A stretch of 64,000 nucleotides of DNA from a virus. The position numbers and the translations under genes are program-made. The notes beneath the pieces were generated by a model. The model saw nothing but the letters and a program-made list of their open reading frames with translations. It was not told the origin of the DNA and did not search any database. The stretch lies in the UHGV virus genome UHGV-0141439; one strand, 5' to 3'. Positions 9,721-49,800 of the stretch are shown here, piece by piece (the stretch's first letter is position 1; each line of letters starts with the position of its first letter).

Positions 9721-10344
9721 ATGAAGGATGGTGTAGTGAAGTTAAGGGCTTTAGGGGCCGCGCTCGCGGCTATGTTGGGATGCGTATCTGCTAATACTGC
9801 CAATGCAACTGCGTTACCTGCACAATTCAGGGCAGGGCAGCAGGTTATGAATAACGCTGGTGGAGATCATTCACAAGCGGCCATTATGGACTTTTGCAAG
9901 AGGGAGGGCATTCCATTACGGCCTGTTGGAACTCAGTTTATTGGTAAAACTGACTTTTGCGTTTTTGCATATACAGCATATCTGACGGACAAAGCTATAA
10001 CAAAAACAGGTTATTCAACCAAAGATACTCTTTCCAGATTAAGTCAGGGATGGCAGCAATTCGAAGTGTATCGCCAGCAAGGATTAGGTGAGTTATTGCA
10101 ACCTCTTTTTATGCTTGCGTTGGTGCCAGAGGGGCAGCAATTTTTGGTTAAAAAGGGAATGCTTCGCCAAAGTGATATTGCCGGGTTCGATAGCATGATG
10201 GCTTATGAGCGCAAACTAACCGAGCAGCGAAATAAAAAACCATCTGCTTCATGTGTGCAAAGTAAAACAGCAGAATACAGTGCAGTAGCCGGGCCTTTAG
10301 CCAAACAAATGGCAGAGCAATGGTGTAAAAAATACGGGCAATAA
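9721..10344 (+). CDS. Secreted protein or lipoprotein
   Basis: 207 aa; N-terminal signal peptide with a possible lipobox (AAMLGC). Confidence 0.45.
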   Translation: MKDGVVKLRALGAALAAMLGCVSANTANATALPAQFRAGQQVMNNAGGDHSQAAIMDFCKREGIPLRPVGTQFIGKTDFCVFAYTAYLTDKAITKTGYSTKDTLSRLSQGWQQFEVYRQQGLGELLQPLFMLALVPEGQQFLVKKGMLRQSDIAGFDSMMAYERKLTEQRNKKPSASCVQSKTAEYSAVAGPLAKQMAEQWCKKYGQ

Positions 10345-10364: not shown

Positions 10365-10757
10365 TTGAAAAGATTGGCTATTGCTTTACTGGCGTCTTTC
10401 CCTTTGATCGCGAGCGCCGGAAATTTACAAGTTAAGTGCGGTCGGTTTGATATAAAAATCTATCCAGATGCCATATTTCTGAATGGGAATAAGGTTGATA
10501 ACGCACACCGAAAAACTGAATCTGACGTAATGAGCTATGTGTTCCAGGAGTATGCGGAGATGGGGGGAACTTACACGCTGTACTCGCTGGATGTTCCTTC
10601 TCGCGGTGATATGACATTATCCCATCAATGGCAGAACGCCGATGGCGAAGCTCTGCGCGAGGTTAAAACAGAAAAATGTGGCACTTTCCATTCTTTTAAA
10701 GGGAAAGCGCCAAATGTTAAATCTGTGCTTGAAAAACAGCGCGCAGGTGAGCTTTAA
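10365..10757 (+). CDS. Periplasmic protein
   Basis: 130 aa; signal peptide MKRLAIALLASFPLIASA; TTG start per ORF track. Confidence 0.45.
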   Translation: MKRLAIALLASFPLIASAGNLQVKCGRFDIKIYPDAIFLNGNKVDNAHRKTESDVMSYVFQEYAEMGGTYTLYSLDVPSRGDMTLSHQWQNADGEALREVKTEKCGTFHSFKGKAPNVKSVLEKQRAGEL

Positions 10758-11144
10758 ACACCTTTAACCACGGAGATGCCGTTCCCTGCACGATAGCGGC
10801 GGGGAACGGAATTCTCCATCAGGTCACGAATTACTCCCGCCTCATGTAGTTCCACTGTTTCCCAGTATCTGTTTGTCACCAATTACGCCCCTTTCCGCCA
10901 GGGGAAGGTATGAACGAGCTTCTGCTTCGGTTGCAGCCATGACGCAGATATACAGGTGTTTTTGGCAGGAATAGAAACGCCAGATAAATTCAGAATGAGT
11001 TGGGGTGGGGATAGTAGCGATATTGGCAGCCTCCTTTGACTAAGTTAAGGAGCTACCGCGTGAGGTTCCAATCCCGGCACCCGTTTTTCTAAGGTGCCGT
11101 AGAAATATACCCCACGATAAGGCCAGGGCGCAAAAGTCAGTATT

Positions 11145-11312
11145 TTATGCTTTGGCGGATTTCTTCCGGGCTTGCTTGCAGGCGTAGGCCATTGCTTTAG
11201 CTTTCACTTCATCCAGCTTCCCGGTGATCACTTCTTTTCCGAGAGTGACAAACCAGTCATAGCAACCGCCAGTGATGTTCTGGATTTGAAAGTTGAGGTA
11301 GCGAACGGTCAT
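11145..11312 (-). CDS. Small protein (55 aa), hypothetical
   Basis: Hand-translated MTVRYLNFQIQNITGGCYDWFVTLGKEVITGKLDEVKAKAMAYACKQARKKSAKA; GGGGG upstream. Confidence 0.25.
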   Translation of the reverse strand: MTVRYLNFQIQNITGGCYDWFVTLGKEVITGKLDEVKAKAMAYACKQARKKSAKA

Positions 11313-11633
11313 TTTGACACCCCCAGCGCGAGTAAAGAATGCAGATTATCGCGTGAGTGGCGGACAACGAGTGATGGGAAAAGACAGTAGCTGTTCATAG
11401 TGTAGTGACTCCTTGCTTTCGGAGCCGCCTTCGACTGTTCCACGGTCTGGTGGCGGCGCAATAAAGGCTGGAACACCGTGAGTCAACGGGGGCTTTTCAG
11501 CCACCTATATTGCACCGCCATAGGTATAGCGGCGGCAATAATACGAAAAACTAAACAGTTTGTCTCAAAAAGTTGACCGGTGTGCCAATCGGTAGTGAAT
11601 GTACATCGGAGAAATTTACAATTCAACTTAAAA

Positions 11634-11650
11634 TGTTAGAAAACTAATTT
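11634..11650. promoter_or_regulatory. 17-bp operator-like site TGTTAGAAAACTAATTT
   Basis: Matches the window-wide consensus; overlaps the ref stop codon. Confidence 0.5.
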
Positions 11651-12222
11651 ATCAATTCAATCGCCATCTGATACAACGTCATTTCATCGGCATTGTGCCG
11701 CATGAAATCTGCTTTTCCGCCTATTTTTCCATCAGCATGAACAGGGACCAGCCAGGGATATTGTTCTCGGACCTCGGCTGGCGCTGCGTACTGGTGGTGC
11801 CATTTACACAAAGGGAGGACATATTTATGCGCGTTCTCTGCCGTTCTCCCGAAGATATGGTGCAGGGATACCACTGGGCTATGTTGCCCGTGAATATGGC
11901 AGGCAATGCAGGGGAGAGTACCGATAGCGGTCTGTATCCGGCGTTCATCGGCTGTGAGTGATCTGCCCTTCAGGCCGCGTGACGTGCGTGTTTTTTTGGG
12001 CGGAGCGGATACCGCTTTATCTTTTCTCCGCTGTTCATATTGCTTTGCTTTTTCAATTTTCTTTTGCCGATATTCAGGCGATGCGGCTTTTTCTCTCGCT
12101 CGCTGCTGCTGGCGTTGAGCTTGTTGAAGGCGCTTTGCCCTTTGTTCCTCTCGCCAGGCTGGGTCAGCCAATTTTTGCATGGCTTTTTGTCTCTGTTTCT
12201 CCCAATAACTCTGTTTCTGCAT
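11644..12222 (-). CDS. ref: Ref-like HNH endonuclease (recombination enhancement function)
   Basis: 192 aa; very basic N-terminal half; C-terminal Cys/His cluster CIACHIHGQH...HH...CKWHH. Operator pair lies upstream, as for P1 ref. Confidence 0.6.
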   Translation of the reverse strand: MQKQSYWEKQRQKAMQKLADPAWREEQRAKRLQQAQRQQQRAREKAASPEYRQKKIEKAKQYEQRRKDKAVSAPPKKTRTSRGLKGRSLTADERRIQTAIGTLPCIACHIHGQHSPVVSLHHIFGRTAENAHKYVLPLCKWHHQYAAPAEVREQYPWLVPVHADGKIGGKADFMRHNADEMTLYQMAIELIN

Positions 12223-12270: not shown

Positions 12271-12300
12271 TGTTAGATATTCAAAATTGATTTTCTAACA
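12271..12300. promoter_or_regulatory. Paired operator-like sites TGTTAGA-N16-TCTAACA
   Basis: Read directly; sits in the divergent region between ref and the 12495 gene. Confidence 0.6.
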
Positions 12301-27862: not shown

Positions 27863-28034
27863 AAATTTAGGAATTTTTTTCCTTTCCGCGCAGATGGGCA
27901 ATGCATTGCTGGTGTGGGCTTTAAGTTATGCCTGGCAGTTTTTAAGCAGAATTTTCTAAATTGGATGATAAAAAAATGCATCTTGATCCTTTACTCACCC
28001 TGTTATTCGGCATAGATTTGTCATAGTAATTTTA

Positions 28035-28051
28035 TGTTAGAAAACTAAATC
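28035..28051. promoter_or_regulatory. 17-bp operator-like site TGTTAGAAAACTAAATC
   Basis: 12 bp upstream of the 28063 start codon. Confidence 0.5.
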
Positions 28052-28062
28052 GAGTAGGAATA

Positions 28063-29100
28063 ATGAGTAAGAAGTCGATCGAGAAAGAGTACAAACGGTT
28101 CCTGCAAACCGCTGAACGGTGGAAAGAGCTGGTGGTCGCAAACTCTGTTTTCCATGATACCAGTTATTCCGGCGAGGAATTCCGCCATGTTGCACTAACA
28201 CATGATCAGAATGTGCTAGAAGAAGCTGAAAAGTGCCTCACAGAATGGAAAGCCTTTGTTGACTTGTGCCGTAACGCTGACGGCAAAGCGTCTAACATTG
28301 TTGAGTCTGTATATTCTCCGATCCCATTCATTATCGAGGACACAAATCAAAGCACGCATATTGTTGTGCAAAGCGCGACCACCACCCGCTCATTTACGCG
28401 CGAAAATCTGCTCAAAAAATATGATGCAATTATAAAGAAAAGCCTGAAAAACAAGATATTTTCGCAGATTGTTGGTGCACTTGAAGAAGAGCGCCGTTTT
28501 TTCGCATCAGAACCTGAAGGGGAAGTTTACCGGGCGCGCAAAGATGGATACACAGATGTAGTGCTTACAACAAACATTGAAGGCAGCAATGCTCTGTCAC
28601 GATTCAGGGTAGGCGCACACGGAGCCTTAGTGTTCGCAAAACTTCCGAACACCACAGTGCCCGTTGTTAATAATGTCGGCGAACGTCGCAGCATTACTAT
28701 TTATTCTGGGGTTGAGTCGATACCTTGCGGCCTGCTTGGTGACTTTAGTCTCTATCGCGTTCGCGATCTGGAGAAACACCAACCAAGCTATGTTGCGAAG
28801 TCATACATCTTGCGAAACATCGACATCCGCAATGAGAGCTTAAAGAACAAATCAGCCAAAATGCTTGAGGAAGCCGATCCGGCTATTCGCCATATCATTG
28901 AGCGTAAAATACAGACAGCACGCGAAGCGATGGCGAGACTGAATAAAATGGATCTGGAGTTGTTAGACGTAATGATGACATCCGGAGATGACCTGACAGG
29001 CATAAAACTGACAGACGCGCGGAAAAGATACGGTAAAACCATAGAAGAACGTTACGGGTTCACTTTCTCCCAAACACAGCACGCCGCTAAACTCTGGTAA
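28063..29100 (+). CDS. Hypothetical 345-aa protein; candidate C1-type immunity repressor by position only
   Basis: Convergent with pacB, next to lox and cre (the place c1 occupies in P1), with an operator-like site over its promoter; no sequence motif recognised. Confidence 0.4.
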   Translation: MSKKSIEKEYKRFLQTAERWKELVVANSVFHDTSYSGEEFRHVALTHDQNVLEEAEKCLTEWKAFVDLCRNADGKASNIVESVYSPIPFIIEDTNQSTHIVVQSATTTRSFTRENLLKKYDAIIKKSLKNKIFSQIVGALEEERRFFASEPEGEVYRARKDGYTDVVLTTNIEGSNALSRFRVGAHGALVFAKLPNTTVPVVNNVGERRSITIYSGVESIPCGLLGDFSLYRVRDLEKHQPSYVAKSYILRNIDIRNESLKNKSAKMLEEADPAIRHIIERKIQTAREAMARLNKMDLELLDVMMTSGDDLTGIKLTDARKRYGKTIEERYGFTFSQTQHAAKLW

Positions 29101-29171
29101 TCACAAGCCCCGCATTGCCGGGGCTTTATCCGGTGCGCCGTAAAACCCCGTCCTTCAGGGCGTGGAGGATG

Positions 29172-33962: not shown

Positions 33963-34038
33963 TGGTGGCCCCTACCGGACTTGAACCGGTGACCGTGCGA
34001 TTATGAGTCGCCAGCTCTAACCACTGAGCTAAAGGGCC
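33963..34038 (-). tRNA. tRNA-Ile2/Met type, anticodon CAU
   Basis: Hand-folded 76-nt cloverleaf with encoded CCA; closely resembles E. coli ileX. Confidence 0.8.
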
Positions 34039-34208
34039 AGATTACTGTTAATTCCGCTTACGCTTTTTGCCAGAACCGCGTAAGGCTTTTGCCGCTTGCT
34101 CGATCCCATATGCAACCACCAGCAGAAATAAAAATGTCCAACCAGGGTTCTTATCGGCAAAGGCCCAAAAATCCATCACTTGCAGCTACCTTTTAAGACA
34201 AAACGCCA

Positions 34209-34223
34209 TTGCTGTTAGATTGC
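34209..34223. other. Hairpin CCTGG-TGCCT-CCAGG
   Basis: Second member of the covarying hairpin set. Confidence 0.4.
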
Positions 34224-34450
34224 GGTGCCTGGTGCCTCCAGGTGACGTTAACCAGTTAACAATTAACGCCGGGATGTTTGATTTAACCACTAAGGAGGAT
34301 TGTTTTAACTGTTCCGCGTGCGCTTAGCCGCATTCACCGCAATGGTAAGAGCACTTGGCTGGCTGGGCGGCGATGACGCCTGTACGCATTTGGTGATCCG
34401 GTTCTGCTTCCGGCATTCGCTTAATTAGCCAAATACTCTTAACGTTGCGC

Positions 34451-34537
34451 TGGCGGAGAGTAATGGAATCGAACCATCATCGCTTGCGCAATGGGACGGT
34501 TTTCAAGACCGCTTGAGCACCATGCTCCCTACTCTCC
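34451..34537 (-). tRNA. tRNA-Ser, anticodon UGA (class II, long variable arm), tentative
   Basis: 87 nt; GGAGAGT/ACTCTCC acceptor stem, loop CUUGAAA, GGTTCGATTCC T-arm, encoded CCA; D-arm spacing is atypical. Confidence 0.55.
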
Positions 34538-34682
34538 GGCCGTTGTGGTGGCCGGTACTGAATCTCCGGCATACGGTGCAGCCAATTAGGACTACGGACG
34601 ATCACCGCTCGCGAAAGGGAAGATTTGCGGCCGCATTTCCCTAACATCCAAGAAAGCTATCGCATCAGTCTGCGAATCCACC

Positions 34683-34774
34683 ACAACGTTGAGAACACTG
34701 GTTGTCACGCTGCAACGCAACATTTATTCGTAGATTGGGATATGACCCCGTTACGTCAGTGTTCTCAACGTTGT
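34683..34774. repeat. Perfect 18-bp inverted repeat ACAACGTTGAGAACACTG with 56-bp spacer
   Basis: Arms at 34683-34700 and 34757-34774. Confidence 0.6.
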
Positions 34775-35002
34775 AGTACCGGTTACGGTTCCGGCCAGGC
34801 CTCTTCCTCAACGGGGTATTCTCCATACGGACTACCGTTTATTGGTCGTTCCTGCGGTTTATGTTGTGAAGCCAGATGCTTATCTTCTGGTTGCTTCAAA
34901 GAGCTGCACTTCATCACAACGGTAAGGGTACTTCGTAGGGATTCGAACCCTCTGCCAAGCACGGCGATCTCCGACGTCGCAAAATACCCTTACCTGTTGT
35001 GT

Positions 35003-35078
35003 TGGTGCCGATTAACGGACTCGAACCGCTGACATCCTGCTTACAAGGCAGGCGCTCTACCAACTGAGCTAAACCGGC
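35003..35078 (-). tRNA. tRNA-Thr, anticodon UGU
   Basis: Canonical 76-nt cloverleaf, loop CUUGUAA, encoded CCA. Confidence 0.8.
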
Positions 35079-35080
35079 AT

Positions 35081-35157
35081 TGGCGATGGTGGGTGGATTC
35101 GAACCACCGACCGACAGCTTAGAAGGCTGCTGCTCTATCCTACTGAGCTACACCATC
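35081..35157 (-). tRNA. tRNA-Arg, anticodon UCU
   Basis: Canonical 77-nt cloverleaf, loop CUUCUAA, encoded CCA. Confidence 0.8.
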
Positions 35158-46586: not shown

Positions 46587-47072
46587 ATGGCAAATATTGA
46601 ACCTCGCTGGCTAATTGAAGCCCGTAAGCACATTGGCCTGACTGAAATAAAAGGCGCTAAACACAACCCTGAAATCGTTCAGTTCTGGCGCGACATCAAG
46701 CGCGGCGGAATTAAAGACGATGAAACGCCGTGGTGCGCAGCATTTGTCGGTGCAATGCTGGAACGTGTAGGCATCCACTCAACAAGATTTGAGTCGGCAA
46801 AATCCTATCTGGATTGGGGCGAGAAATTAGATACACCGGCATACGGATGTATCGTTGTATTTACCCGCGTAGGCGGTGGGCACGTAGGCTTCGTTGTCGG
46901 ACGCCGTGCCAATGGCGATCTGCTTGTCCTGGGTGGGAACCAGGGGGATGCGGTTAATATTCGCGCATTCCCAACATCAAGAGTGTCTGGCTATCGCTGG
47001 CCTGCTGGCGAACCACGCAATACCGCTCTGTTACCAGTCGGAGACGCAGCAACCTCAACTAATGAGGCATGA
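46587..47072 (+). CDS. TIGR02594-like protein (CHAP-like putative cell-wall hydrolase)
   Basis: 161 aa; conserved Cys (PWCAAFV) and His (GGHVGFVV). Confidence 0.5.
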   Translation: MANIEPRWLIEARKHIGLTEIKGAKHNPEIVQFWRDIKRGGIKDDETPWCAAFVGAMLERVGIHSTRFESAKSYLDWGEKLDTPAYGCIVVFTRVGGGHVGFVVGRRANGDLLVLGGNQGDAVNIRAFPTSRVSGYRWPAGEPRNTALLPVGDAATSTNEA

Positions 47073-47096
47073 AAAAAGCCCCGGCCTGGCCGGGGC
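47072..47096 (-). terminator. Hairpin terminator ending the ant operon (minus strand)
   Basis: GCCCCGGCC-T-GGCCGGGGC with an A-run on the + strand (U-run on minus). Confidence 0.55.
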
Positions 47097-47104
47097 ATCA
47101 CGCT

Positions 47105-47305
47105 TCAAGTCACGATCCAATCATTACCGACTATATCAGCCGTCGATAAATCAACTTCCCGGATCTGGAGTCCATTAATACAAAACCATCCGGTAGTAGA
47201 GTAATTATCAGGCCAGGCCCATACACCAACACTCCATGCTTTACGGCGGCACACTTCAGCCTGTTCTTCCCTGATTTTTTTTACCGCCTGCATGATGTCC
47301 ATCAC
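47105..47305 (-). CDS. Small hypothetical protein, translationally coupled after ant
   Basis: 66-aa ORF; ATGA overlap with ant. Confidence 0.35.
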   Translation of the reverse strand: MMDIMQAVKKIREEQAEVCRRKAWSVGVWAWPDNYSTTGWFCINGLQIREVDLSTADIVGNDWIVT

Positions 47306-48009
47306 TCACCTCCCCAACCGATCACCTGGAATTGCCCCATTTTTGGGTGATACCAGCGTTTTCCTCGGTGTTCAGCCTCCGACATCATCCGGTTAAAAGC
47401 ATTCATGAAGGGAGATAAGGCCACGATGGATCGACGCGACAATACCCCCTCTGGAGTTAAAAACTCATGTGTATCGGTGGGAATCCGGTAAGCGTTGACC
47501 AGGTTGCGACATTTGGCTTTGGTCAGGCCGCATTTTGCCGCCAGCTGGCGGTAGCCAATGTAGCCTTCCGGCATATTGCCTTTCTTGATTTGCTCAACGG
47601 TTTCAGCGACCTGGCTAACCTTTGACTCAACAGCATGAAGCCGCTTTTGCTGCTGAACTGCATTTGCAGCCATTGCGGCGATCATCTCTATTTCGGTCAA
47701 CGGCTGGCGTACTTGTTCTTCCAGTTCGCGCCAGCGGTCCACCAGCCGGGCGGTGAATTCCGGAGAGAGCTGCGCAACGACAATAATGCTGTCTCGTTTG
47801 CCTTGCTCGCCTTCGAAGACGTAAGCCTCGACACTACGGCGTAGTCCTAAGTTATTGATTTTTTCGAAAACCTGCAATGCAGGAAGTTGAATAACTCCAG
47901 ATTTAGCCAGGCGCTCTATTGATATTTTTACGTTATCTGGACGACTTCCCACCAGCTCCGCGATCTCAATGCTGGTCATTGATGGCTTTTCAAGAATGCA
48001 GATATCCAT
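47302..48009 (-). CDS. Antirepressor-like protein with Rha-type N-terminal domain
   Basis: MTSIEIAELVGSRPDNVKISIERL matches the Rha-family N-terminus; ATG at 48009 overlaps the icd-like stop (TGATG). Confidence 0.55.
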   Translation of the reverse strand: MDICILEKPSMTSIEIAELVGSRPDNVKISIERLAKSGVIQLPALQVFEKINNLGLRRSVEAYVFEGEQGKRDSIIVVAQLSPEFTARLVDRWRELEEQVRQPLTEIEMIAAMAANAVQQQKRLHAVESKVSQVAETVEQIKKGNMPEGYIGYRQLAAKCGLTKAKCRNLVNAYRIPTDTHEFLTPEGVLSRRSIVALSPFMNAFNRMMSEAEHRGKRWYHPKMGQFQVIGWGGE

Positions 48010-48233
48010 CAGTGTGCCTCCGCAATTCCGGGATTGGTAATATTGCGATACCAAGGATTAGTGTTTGGTTGTGATGAAGTAGAGAAACGGCCAGTCAGGA
48101 CGCCATGTTGATCAGGGATCAGAGAACGGGCTTCTTTTTCAGTTGCGGCAATTGCGAAGTGATCACAGTGTTTTTGCAGGGAGTGGAAACGCCAGATAAA
48201 TTCCGGGCGCGAGCAAGGATTGGCATTAACCAT
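48009..48233 (-). CDS. Icd-like cell-division inhibitor
   Basis: 74 aa (MVNANPCSRPEFIWRFHSLQKHCDHFAIAATEKEARSLIPDQHGVLTGRFS...); ATG at 48233 after a GAGG RBS. Confidence 0.5.
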   Translation of the reverse strand: MVNANPCSRPEFIWRFHSLQKHCDHFAIAATEKEARSLIPDQHGVLTGRFSTSSQPNTNPWYRNITNPGIAEAH

Positions 48234-48272
48234 AGTTACGGCCTCATTCGTAGGTTTAACAACCTGCGCCCC

Positions 48273-48453
48273 GCTGCTAAACGGGTGGCAGGACGTGACG
48301 GGGTTAGCAGACTGGCACGAATGAAACCAGCAGGCCGAAGCCTCCCCATCACGCCCCACCATAATTCGGGCGTAACGTGGTTTTACGGACACAAAAATAC
48401 CGCAATATCGGATATCTGCGGTTGTCCGCATTCGTATTCAGGCTGCTAAACCC
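48273..48453 (-). ncRNA. Candidate C4-like antisense-RNA control region
   Basis: On the minus strand GUUUAGCAGC occurs at 48453-48442 and 48282-48273 and its complement GUCUGCUAACCC at 48312-48301, giving alternative pairings just upstream of the icd RBS. Confidence 0.3.
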
Positions 48454-48576
48454 GGTCGCAGAATTTGCTACGACGACATGAATATAAGCCTGAAAACATG
48501 GAAGATCAACTAAAAATTTCAGCAATGGATGACTTCAGTCGATGATGCAGATCATACATTCCGATTTAGAAACAGC

Positions 48577-48593
48577 AAATTAATTTTCTAACA
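48577..48593. promoter_or_regulatory. 17-bp operator-like site upstream of the icd/ant module
   Basis: Plus strand AAATTAATTTTCTAACA; degenerate partner ATTTAGA 16 bp upstream. Confidence 0.5.
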
Positions 48594-48647
48594 CAAATTA
48601 TCGGGCGAGCATTTTCCGATCATTGGGATGCTTTGTAGACACACAGG

Positions 48648-49610
48648 TCATCCCCTAAATCCCGCAGGGATTGACCAATCCTCACGGTCAAATTCAGACC
48701 GATAGCCACGCTGTTTCATCAGGTCAAAGGCTTCACCAATGGTTGCACACCCCTGGGAGCCAGAATAATCCATTGAGAAATCCAGGGCACTGGATTGTTT
48801 AGGCTTATTCACTGCGGTAGCGGCACTACGTATCCATGCAAATTTTTTTGCCAGCTTTTCAGCGGTACGATACAGAGCCTGCCGTTTTGTGTGCCCCTCG
48901 TCTGAACGACGCTTTGCAGCTCTCGCTTTTGCCGCCGCCAGGCAGTGGTTGGTATGTTCTTCCCTGATTGCTGTTTTTTTATCCAGTACCCCGTGATCCG
49001 TTTGAGAACTATCTGCTGGTGAAGCCTTTGGCTGAACCGCGCATGATCTTTCTCTTCTTTTGGCTATAGAGTGACTCTTATTTTCTATTGGCTGTTCATT
49101 TTGAACATGGGGGGACTTGTTCAATTTGAACAGGGGGTTCCCAGTTTCAAAAAAATAACGAACCTTTGAAATCAACTGCTTAACCAGTTTTGTGGCGTTG
49201 GCAAATTTGATGCCCTGCTTACCCCCTATCTCCATTGCTACATGAATGAAGTGGAGAAATTGTGTCGTAAACCGATATACGTTACACACCTGGGCATTGT
49301 TATTCGCTACCTGATGTTGCTTAACAAGCATTCCGCACTTCGTCGCTTCAGCAAATGCCCGGCGTACAGTAGAAATACTGCGTCCTGTAATCTCGGACAT
49401 ATCAGCATATGAGCGACGGATCATGTATTCATCGGTAGACCCTGCCAGGTTGGCGAACTCGGCAATAATGGCGCTATGTGAAGGAGAAAGAAGACCACTA
49501 TGACGAGCAAAAAAACTCAACTGATGACCTTTGATTTTTTTGTGGTATTCAGTGTTGTTTTTATACTCAGAAGTGTTGAAAGTTACTGAAACTGAATTTA
49601 AAATATTCAT
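48648..49610 (-). CDS. HTH-domain protein; RepL-like replication initiator candidate
   Basis: 320 aa; HTH-like MSEITGRSISTVRRAFAEATKCGML; position upstream of the immunity module. Confidence 0.35.
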   Translation of the reverse strand: MNILNSVSVTFNTSEYKNNTEYHKKIKGHQLSFFARHSGLLSPSHSAIIAEFANLAGSTDEYMIRRSYADMSEITGRSISTVRRAFAEATKCGMLVKQHQVANNNAQVCNVYRFTTQFLHFIHVAMEIGGKQGIKFANATKLVKQLISKVRYFFETGNPLFKLNKSPHVQNEQPIENKSHSIAKRRERSCAVQPKASPADSSQTDHGVLDKKTAIREEHTNHCLAAAKARAAKRRSDEGHTKRQALYRTAEKLAKKFAWIRSAATAVNKPKQSSALDFSMDYSGSQGCATIGEAFDLMKQRGYRSEFDREDWSIPAGFRG

Positions 49611-49671
49611 CAGATAGTTCCGTGCAAAAATCTATCTACCGTATAAATCTATGCCAGTGGATTTATACACC

Positions 49672-49707
49672 AAAAAGCCGCTTCTCAGCGGCTTTTGCTT
49701 TTTTTGG
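49672..49707. terminator. Bidirectional rho-independent terminator
   Basis: AAAGCCGC-TTCTCA-GCGGCTTT flanked by an A-run and TTGCTTTTTTT. Confidence 0.65.
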
Positions 49708-49783: not shown

Positions 49784-49800
49784 TGTTAGAAATTTAATTT
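49784..49800. promoter_or_regulatory. 17-bp operator-like site TGTTAGAAATTTAATTT
   Basis: Exact consensus; lies between the stop at 49811 and the terminator. Confidence 0.5.

Follow-up and report, generated by a model that had tools for sequence, protein, structure and literature searches.

The control of phage immunity by the antisense RNA C4 and the genes icd and ant has been a textbook case since 1990, and in E. coli and Salmonella, resistance genes are often carried by phage-plasmids. We describe here a module of this kind in a 64-kb stretch of viral DNA (UHGV virus genome UHGV-0141439; the whole of this stretch is called the window throughout). The mechanism by which C4 controls icd and ant has been described for the phages P1 and P7 (PMC12197685, PMC8198154, PMC8546580), and the processing of C4 by RNase P in both is cited in PMC2190699. 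A population study of D6-like plasmids noted that they harbour an ImmI-related region in which c4 (the antisense RNA), icd and an antirepressor all have homologues, and that homologues of c4 and icd are also present in a second region (PMC6799933). A related arrangement is found in the Salmonella prophage Gifsy-1, in which IsrK is a short terminated small RNA (sRNA), read-through yields the isrK-orf45-anrP transcript, and the antirepressor-like gene anrP is activated in trans; there, an intramolecular IsrK-orf45 helix was disrupted by the point mutations G28A and G31A, with partners C162U and C159U (PMC4825925).

We put at about 90% the probability that the region of the window studied here represents the operon for secondary immunity (immI) of a D6-like plasmid prophage, homologous to c4-icd-ant of P1 and P7 and silenced by C4 in the P1-like manner. 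Being described for P1 and P7 and noted in D6-like plasmids, the module is already known. Since the RNA families are in Rfam and the D6 region has been described, the value of the finding lies in the correct annotation of the locus.

The C4 RNA and the icd-ant operon

The first-pass annotation of this DNA, made from its letters, had proposed a P1 immI-like module with a C4-type antisense RNA, and this was borne out by two Rfam models that scored above their thresholds. RF01695 (C4) gave a full-length match at 48281-48366 on the minus strand, with 71.9 bits against a gathering threshold of 45 (E=4.6e-12), and RF03163 (c4-a1b1), in which a1 occupies the loop of the second of two hairpins and b1 comes after it, matched at 48435-48487 on the same strand, with 52.2 bits against a threshold of 46.7 (E=2.5e-10). 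The DNA of the c4-icd stretch (approximately 48122-48494) is 86-93% identical to the c4-icd regions of the P1 family, P1 and P7 themselves being at 86-88%. The RNA C4 of the window is identical to the annotated C4 of P7 except for six bases of the b' loop. Its predicted minimum free energy fold (-45.7 kcal/mol) is the same as that of the annotated P1 and P7 C4, with a long closing stem around two hairpins and with a' and b' unpaired, and its ends (5' GGUGGGG and 3' CCACC) are both identical to those of P1 and P7. The features of the operon are given below in the order of transcription, with lengths in nucleotides (nt) or amino acids (aa); SD is the Shine-Dalgarno sequence and ORF an open reading frame.

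48487-48393, minus strand: leader RNA with a1 and b1, an IsrK-like unit (Rfam c4-a1b1 and isrK alignment)
48449-48443, minus strand: a1, UUAGCAG, in the loop of the second leader hairpin
48435-48429, minus strand: b1, ACGAAUG, after the a1 hairpin
48422-48399, minus strand: terminator-like hairpin followed by a U-run at 48398-48391 (kept on the isrK alignment)
48360-48284, minus strand: C4 antisense RNA, 77 nt (homology to the annotated C4 of P1 and P7)
48323-48317, minus strand: b', CAUUCGU, in a hairpin loop of C4
48310-48304, minus strand: a', CUGCUAA, in the single-stranded junction of C4
48242-48280, minus strand: downstream target region in the icd leader, comprising a2, b2 and the SD (coordinates verified)
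48280-48274, minus strand: a2, UUAGCAG, in the icd leader
48251-48245, minus strand: b2, ACGAAUG, abutting the icd SD
48233-48009, minus strand: icd, 74-aa Icd-like host cell-division inhibitor, upstream cistron for ant
48009-47302, minus strand: ant, 235-aa Rha/Roi-like putative antirepressor (PHROG, Pfam, and D6 and RefSeq names)
47302-47105, minus strand: 65-aa ORF of unassigned function, the operon's final cistron (PHROG 7385, unknown function, E=5e-49; equal to D6 orf17)
47096-47078, minus strand: intrinsic-terminator-like hairpin GCCCCGGCCAGGCCGGGGC followed by TTTTTT, end of the operon (terminator scan, 8 G-C pairs)

The two RNAs are linked by short complementary elements. On the minus strand, GTTTAGCAGC occurs in exactly two copies in the window, at 48451-48442 and 48282-48273. 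The spacing of about 170 nt that had been annotated for them is 169 nt, and the start of the second copy precedes the icd SD by 35 nt (about 30 nt had been given). The complement said to lie between the copies was found in part, as 7 of the 10 nt: the full 10-mer complement GCTGCTAAAC is absent between them, and what is present is the 7-nt core CUGCUAA at 48310-48304. Taken by itself, the 10-mer is not significant, as the search for GTTTAGCAGC with up to one mismatch returned 4 matches against 4.3 expected. Compared with the annotated P1 locus, the repeat is the a element. The proposed duplication of an upstream and a downstream target holds for a; the b element, located at the SD, had been missed. 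C4 and the icd leader are exactly complementary over 7 bp in a'/a2 and 7 bp in b'/b2, and b2 reaches into the SD, its last G being the first G of the motif GAGG (48245-48242).

A 140-aa ORF (48009-48431) that runs through C4 into icd was rejected as an open-frame artefact, because its translation would cross the C4 structure and because a conserved SD and ATG are found at 48245-48231. In the early P1 record X15639, c4 was likewise annotated as a coding sequence.

Directly downstream of C4 is icd. The identification of an Icd-like ORF proved correct: its product scored 40.4 bits with the NCBIfam model NF033153 (phage_ICD_like; cut-off 25) and over 61 aa has 62% identity to P1 Icd (E=1e-27), and the equivalent gene in the D6 record is annotated icd. 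Also present, at 48011-48007, is the TGATG in which the icd stop was said to overlap the antirepressor start. A second TGATG (47304-47300) joins the ant stop to the start of the 65-aa ORF. The best PHROG match of Ant was PHROG 63, 'anti-repressor Ant' (E=2.2e-47), with several further antirepressor PHROGs also matching, and the D6 equivalent of Ant is orf18. No match was obtained with Pfam for Icd or for the 65-aa ORF, and a search of Ant by sequence against solved structures returned just spurious repeat-protein matches.

Over positions 47000-49700 (2.7 kb), the window shares 95.9% identity with Escherichia phage D6 (MF356679), and the E. coli plasmid NZ_CP047663.1 is 99.6% identical to the 2.7 kb around c4-icd-ant. 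The whole window is collinear with D6 and contains the repL-c4-icd-ant-orf17 block; judged by this collinearity and gene content, it is a D6-like plasmid prophage of E. coli. The D6 annotation of the region consists of a repL-like 'lytic replication protein', icd ('inhibition of cell division') and a 'putative anti-repressor, similar to HK97 Roi', with a small hypothetical ORF, a peptidoglycan hydrolase on the other strand and darB further on. The GenBank record of D6 annotates proteins and no C4 RNA, and the gene table of a related D6-like plasmid also holds proteins only, without C4 or its targets.

Covariation of the a and b elements

The complementarity was followed in at least 127 loci from viral and genome collections, including the D6, P1 and P7 records and the window, picked by an exact 23-nt match to the C4 core. 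Wherever the elements could be read, a1 and a2 matched a' as its exact complement, as b1 and b2 did b', with one exception. At least 11 combinations of a and b were fully scored among these loci. They include at least two main a' types (CUGCUAA and CUGUCAA) and at least six well-sampled b' loops (ACAAUC, GUAAGU, ACUAAC, AUUCGU, AUGUAC, and ACAAGU); two more b' loops, seen in one locus each, were not fully scorable. When 48 distinct leaders were aligned, pairing was complete (100%) in each of the four intermolecular helices, without a broken pair, and eight positions carried doubly changed pairs (six in b and two in a). When the partner was slid by one to three columns as a control, pairing was 25-54%. 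The 27 internal pairs of C4, at 99.9-100% paired in the 48 relatives, were almost invariant. Cognate duplexes were calculated at approximately -21 kcal/mol, against -8 to -13 kcal/mol for non-cognate ones overall and -10 to -13 kcal/mol for the C4 of the window on D6, P1 and P7 targets.

The sole sampled locus with a broken register (L044, IMGVR_UViG_2565956613_000015) carries window-type b' and b1 (AUUCGU/ACGAAU) together with a P1-type b2 (GUUAGU). Either recombination with a crossover between C4 and icd or a chimeric assembly may account for it; should the locus be genuine, pairing through b would no longer reach its icd-ant.

The allele of the window (b = AUUCGU, with a of the P7 type) recurs in at least 15 other sampled loci. 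It was seen seven times with a D6-type Ant and six times with a P1-type Ant1/2, and is therefore neither unique nor bound to one backbone. Because the same leader alleles occur on both Ant types, the comparison of alleles indicates that the c4-icd RNA module and the effector gene swap independently between P1-like and D6-like phage-plasmids. The a and b alleles are thus a small interchangeable set in perfect three-way register, common to P1-type and D6-type backbones, so that heteroimmune co-resident or superinfecting elements should be predictable from them. A broader proposal would make these short sequences a combinatorial immunity 'barcode', held in three-way register, shuffled by recombination and set within a three-RNA device that includes an independently terminated IsrK-type leader titrating C4. 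The barcode and its covariation are seen directly, and so are IsrK-type leaders in the place of a1b1; the proposal as a whole we regard as rather unlikely.

Putative operators, the C1-like repressor and a second immI-like module

Upstream of the leader, an operator-like site and two promoter-like sites were found. The operator-like site belongs to a family of 17-bp sites spread over the window.

48593-48577, minus strand: 17-bp operator-like site TGTTAGAAAATTAATTT, an exact match to the motif TGTTAGAAAAYTAATTT
48578-48551, minus strand: upstream promoter-like pair TTGCTG-16 nt-TATGAT, read by eye, with its -35 overlapping the end of the operator
48509-48481, minus strand: promoter-like site TTGATC-17 nt-TATATT (scan, 9/12)
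Starts at 1805, 11634, 12284, 16380, 26634, 28035, 32512, 36222, 36378, 37628, 48577 and 49784: copies of TGTTAGAAAAYTAATTT

With up to three mismatches, TGTTAGAAAAYTAATTT has 12 matches in the window against 0.35 expected, a number reached by 0 of 100 shuffles. The site at 48577-48593, which had been called operator-like in the first-pass annotation, is an exact member of this family, but it does not follow the C1 consensus of P1. The P1 C1 operator consensus (ATTGCTCTAATAAATTT) had 0 matches in the window with up to three mismatches, and the site was rejected as a P1-consensus C1 operator; a different 17-mer fills the equivalent place. One copy (28035-28051) is 12 nt upstream of the ATG of the c1-like gene, others are upstream of repL (49784-49800) and of ref (12284-12300), and the copy at 11634-11650 is upstream of a second C4-like RNA. 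This dispersed pattern is that known for the C1 operators of P1. The sites are putative, and by their sequence and placement the set probably represents the operators of the C1-like repressor (28063-29100), for which Pfam gave no match. Several copies sit inside genes, and the right half of TGTTAGAAAAYTAATTT resembles the P1 operator (AAT(A/T)AATTT).

The placement of the promoters also follows P1. The upstream pair is arranged like P2c4 (P51a) of P1, the -35 of which is overlapped by the operator Oc4, and TTGATC-17-TATATT aligns with the -35 and -10 of the annotated P1c4 (P51b), as predicted for a constitutive promoter.

The c1-like repressor region (27952-29129) is just 84.5% identical to D6, against 91-97% in its flanks, and the element of the window therefore probably differs from D6 in its primary (immC) immunity as well as in immI. 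Four tRNA genes were found by ARAGORN at 33963-35157 on the minus strand, namely Met(CAT), Ser(TGA), Thr(TGT) and Arg(TCT). At the positions collinear with these, tRNAs for Ser, Thr and Asn are given in the D6 record, on the opposite strand. The Ser tRNA gene of the window scored 46.6 with the Rfam model of tRNA-Sec, slightly under the threshold of 47.

A second immI-like module, in a decayed state, lies at 10835-11660 on the minus strand and was compared with those of D6 (L131:24900-26000) and of pF719-4 (L133:2040-2600). In D6, the module comprises a C4-like RNA, two small ORFs, an IsrK-like leader (59.1 bits), a C4 (76 bits), icd2 and a Rha/KilA-like ant2. In the window, the C4-like RNA (11525-11446; 40.2 bits, sub-threshold) and the small ORFs are intact, and an exact deletion between the repeats a1 and a2 has removed the IsrK terminator together with the full C4, leaving the junction CCGGGATTGGAACCTCACGCGG (approximately 11076-11055). 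The start codon of icd2 is ATC instead of ATG (11021-11019), and the 3' end of icd2 together with ant2 is replaced by two genes on the plus strand (9721-10344 and 10365-10757). The plasmid NZ_CP150992.1, the sole one in the collection that matched the whole query of this module in one piece, shares the arrangement. It looks as if the antisense gene was lost first and the genes that it controlled were inactivated afterwards. The remnant icd2 leader (11070-11035) holds UUGGAAC and, beside its SD, AGUCAA, which are complementary (6+6 nt) to the unpaired GUUCCA and UUGACU of the C4-like RNA at 11525-11446. In the undeleted allele of pF719-4, the cognate C4 has a' GUUCCAA and b' CCUUUGAC. The overlapping specificity of two RNAs of one element may be due to chance or to cross-regulation.

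Proposed mechanism, alternatives and known systems

By analogy with P1 and P7, the operon would be transcribed leftward, on the minus strand, from the constitutive promoter at 48509-48481 and from the upstream promoter overlapped by the operator, the latter being controlled through the 17-bp site at 48593-48577 by the C1-like repressor. The transcript would carry, in order, the a1/b1 leader, the terminator-like hairpin, the 77-nt C4, a2/b2, icd, ant and the 65-aa ORF, and C4 would be cut from this leader of its own operon, as by RNase P in P1 and P7. Free C4 is expected to pair through its loop b' with b2, at the icd SD, and through its junction a' with a2, thereby hiding the ribosome-binding site and blocking the translation of icd. 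Because the start of ant lies inside the icd stop (TGATG), ant would be blocked as well; in P1, the untranslated mRNA is also terminated prematurely. In this way the antirepressor of the prophage would be kept silent, as would the same operon of a superinfecting phage with matching a and b, and the a and b sequences would serve as the code of immunity specificity.

The upstream targets a1 and b1 invite a refinement of this scheme, in which three RNAs take part. The leader would be an IsrK-type sRNA running from about 48474 to the hairpin and U-run at 48422-48391; the terminated short RNA would act as a decoy that pairs with a' and b' of C4, in cis or in trans, and relieves the repression of icd-ant, and the terminator would also set the amounts of C4 and of the icd-ant mRNA. 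The Rfam model RF01394 (isrK) aligned over its whole length (model 1-77) to 48474-48393 on the minus strand, hairpin and U-run included, with E=7.4e-7 for the whole window. Its 46.5 bits are under the gathering threshold of 50, however, so that the likeness to IsrK is a working analogy and not a membership. The terminator scan did not list the hairpin 48422-48399 on the minus strand, and in the relatives this hairpin is 92.5% paired through conservation without compensatory changes. More favourable is the comparison with other loci, since an above-threshold isrK was found 25-60 nt upstream of an above-threshold C4 in the second module of D6 and in 7/7 sampled viral loci. Of 119 loci of this IsrK-C4 type, with at least seven a-types among them, 116 have the reverse complement of the 7-mer after GGGA (the a1 loop position in D6) 125-170 nt downstream. 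The two paralogous modules of D6 have unrelated terminator stems at the same position, and the pairs a1/a' and b1/b' covary perfectly. Trans-activation of anrP by IsrK was shown by experiment in Gifsy-1 (PMC4825925), but Gifsy-1 has no icd and its wiring may differ, and in the P1 record a1 and b1 are labelled only as 'putative' targets. By this likeness, the upstream duplicate is probably the body of an IsrK-like RNA able to compete for C4, and the comparison offers a testable function for the long-unexplained a1/b1 of P1; the complete three-RNA switch we consider possible, though we lean against it. In a lambdoid-type viral contig, a DicF RNA match (L134:4747-4798, 61.1 bits) was observed approximately 250 nt upstream of an IsrK-C4 pair, placing two small-RNA genes of cell division and immunity side by side.

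Several points weigh against the reading of the region as a P1-like immI operon. The sample of loci is biased to close relatives by the way it was picked, and the upstream promoter-like pair, at 8/12, is under the scan threshold. While homology, anatomy and complementarity, with the covariation of the latter, were observed at the locus itself, the processing, translational block, polarity and immunity proposed for the window allele are carried over from P1 and P7. The antirepressor step is an analogy from position and family name, because Ant is unlike Ant1/Ant2 of P1 and the repressor is just 20% identical to P1 C1. A BLASTP comparison of Ant with P1 Ant1 showed no similarity, the best E being 0.13 over 82 aa, and Ant was rejected as an Ant1/Ant2 homologue. 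The description of ant as a Rha-type antirepressor agrees with the RefSeq name 'Rha family transcriptional regulator' carried by plasmids with 98-99.6% identity, but PF09669 (Phage_pRha) of Pfam scored 22.0 bits, under its gathering threshold of 29.9 (E=2.4e-4, residues 11-98), and the action of this Rha/Roi-like protein against the C1-like repressor is proposed from position only.

It could be argued that only the RNA part is P1-like and that the output is a Roi/Rha-type DNA-binding regulator with another role in the lytic cycle, in which case C4 would gate a step other than the inactivation of the repressor. Besides the RefSeq name and the lack of similarity to Ant1/2, this is favoured by the N-terminal winged-helix DNA-binding domain, for which Pfam HTH_24 was above its cut-off, and by the approximately 90% DNA identity of part of ant to the roi 'DNA-binding protein' genes of lambdoid and Stx phages. 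Yet the best PHROG is 'anti-repressor Ant' (E=2e-47), accompanied by other antirepressor PHROGs, and the protein sits exactly in the ant slot behind icd. That one c4-icd leader is found on P1-type or D6-type Ant suggests that the two are functionally interchangeable, and the IsrK module of Gifsy-1 drives an antirepressor-like protein (PMC4825925), so that we hold a different output to be unlikely. Far less probable still is that the complementarity of the repeats arose by chance or is left over from a dead module, with no functional small RNA produced. With one mismatch allowed, the 10-mer alone shows no enrichment, and the second module of the window is visibly decayed, but the Rfam E-values of 1e-10 to 1e-12, the intactness of every part, the perfect three-way covariation of a and b over 48 distinct sequences, and the conservation of the promoter, SD and overlapping cistrons with P1, P7 and D6 all speak against it. 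Together with the 86-93% DNA identity to the c4 regions of P1, P7 and D6 and the compensatory nature of the covariation, the Rfam scores place the locus far beyond chance. The preferred reading is accordingly that of a P1-like immI operon in a D6-like plasmid prophage.

Among the known systems, P22 sar/ant is similar in that a small antisense RNA blocks the translation of an antirepressor (PMC12197685), but sar is a true cis-antisense RNA from the opposite strand, whereas C4 comes from the same strand and pairs through short loop sequences. The CI RNA of the satellite phage P4, with seqA and seqC, is likened to the module by its description: it is processed from the leader of its own operon and has targets upstream and downstream (PMC4825925). 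It differs in acting mainly through premature transcription termination of the replication operon, and P4 has no icd/ant pair. The locus IsrK-orf45(STnc1160)-AnrP of Gifsy-1 (RF01394) resembles the module in its anatomy: after a two-hairpin leader and a terminator come a processed small RNA and a short ORF whose translation is coupled to that of an antirepressor-like gene, and the leader is complementary to the downstream RNA (PMC4825925). The differences are the absence of icd in Gifsy-1 and the sub-threshold isrK score of the window; trans activation by the leader RNA was demonstrated in Gifsy-1, and a decoy role in the P1-type modules would be its analogue.

The immI operons of P1 and P7 share with the window the order of operator, two promoters, a1/b1, C4, a2/b2, icd and ant, the position of b2 at the icd SD, and the overlap of the icd stop with the ant start. 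The record of P1 annotates Oc4, P2c4, P1c4, a1, b1, C4, a2, b2, icd and ant1/2, and that of P7 the operator, C4, icd and ant1/2. With P7, the window also shares the type of its a element and the sequence of C4 outside the b' loop. The b element sets the three apart, being AUUCGU/ACGAAU in the window, ACUAAC/GUUAGU in P1 and ACAAUC/GAUUGU in P7. The window further differs from both in that its Ant is an unrelated Rha/Roi-like protein in place of Ant1/Ant2, in having the additional 65-aa cistron, in the sequence of its operator and its distant C1 repressor, and in the location of the operon, which is downstream of repL and not upstream of kilA-repL, without sim genes.

In D6 (orf20-orf17, MF356679) and D6-like plasmid prophages such as pYU39_89, the same genes occur in the same order. 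D6 has an a element of the P1 type (UUGACAG) and ACUUAC/GUAAGU as its b element, and because both specificity elements thus differ from those of the window, heteroimmunity between the two at immI is predicted.

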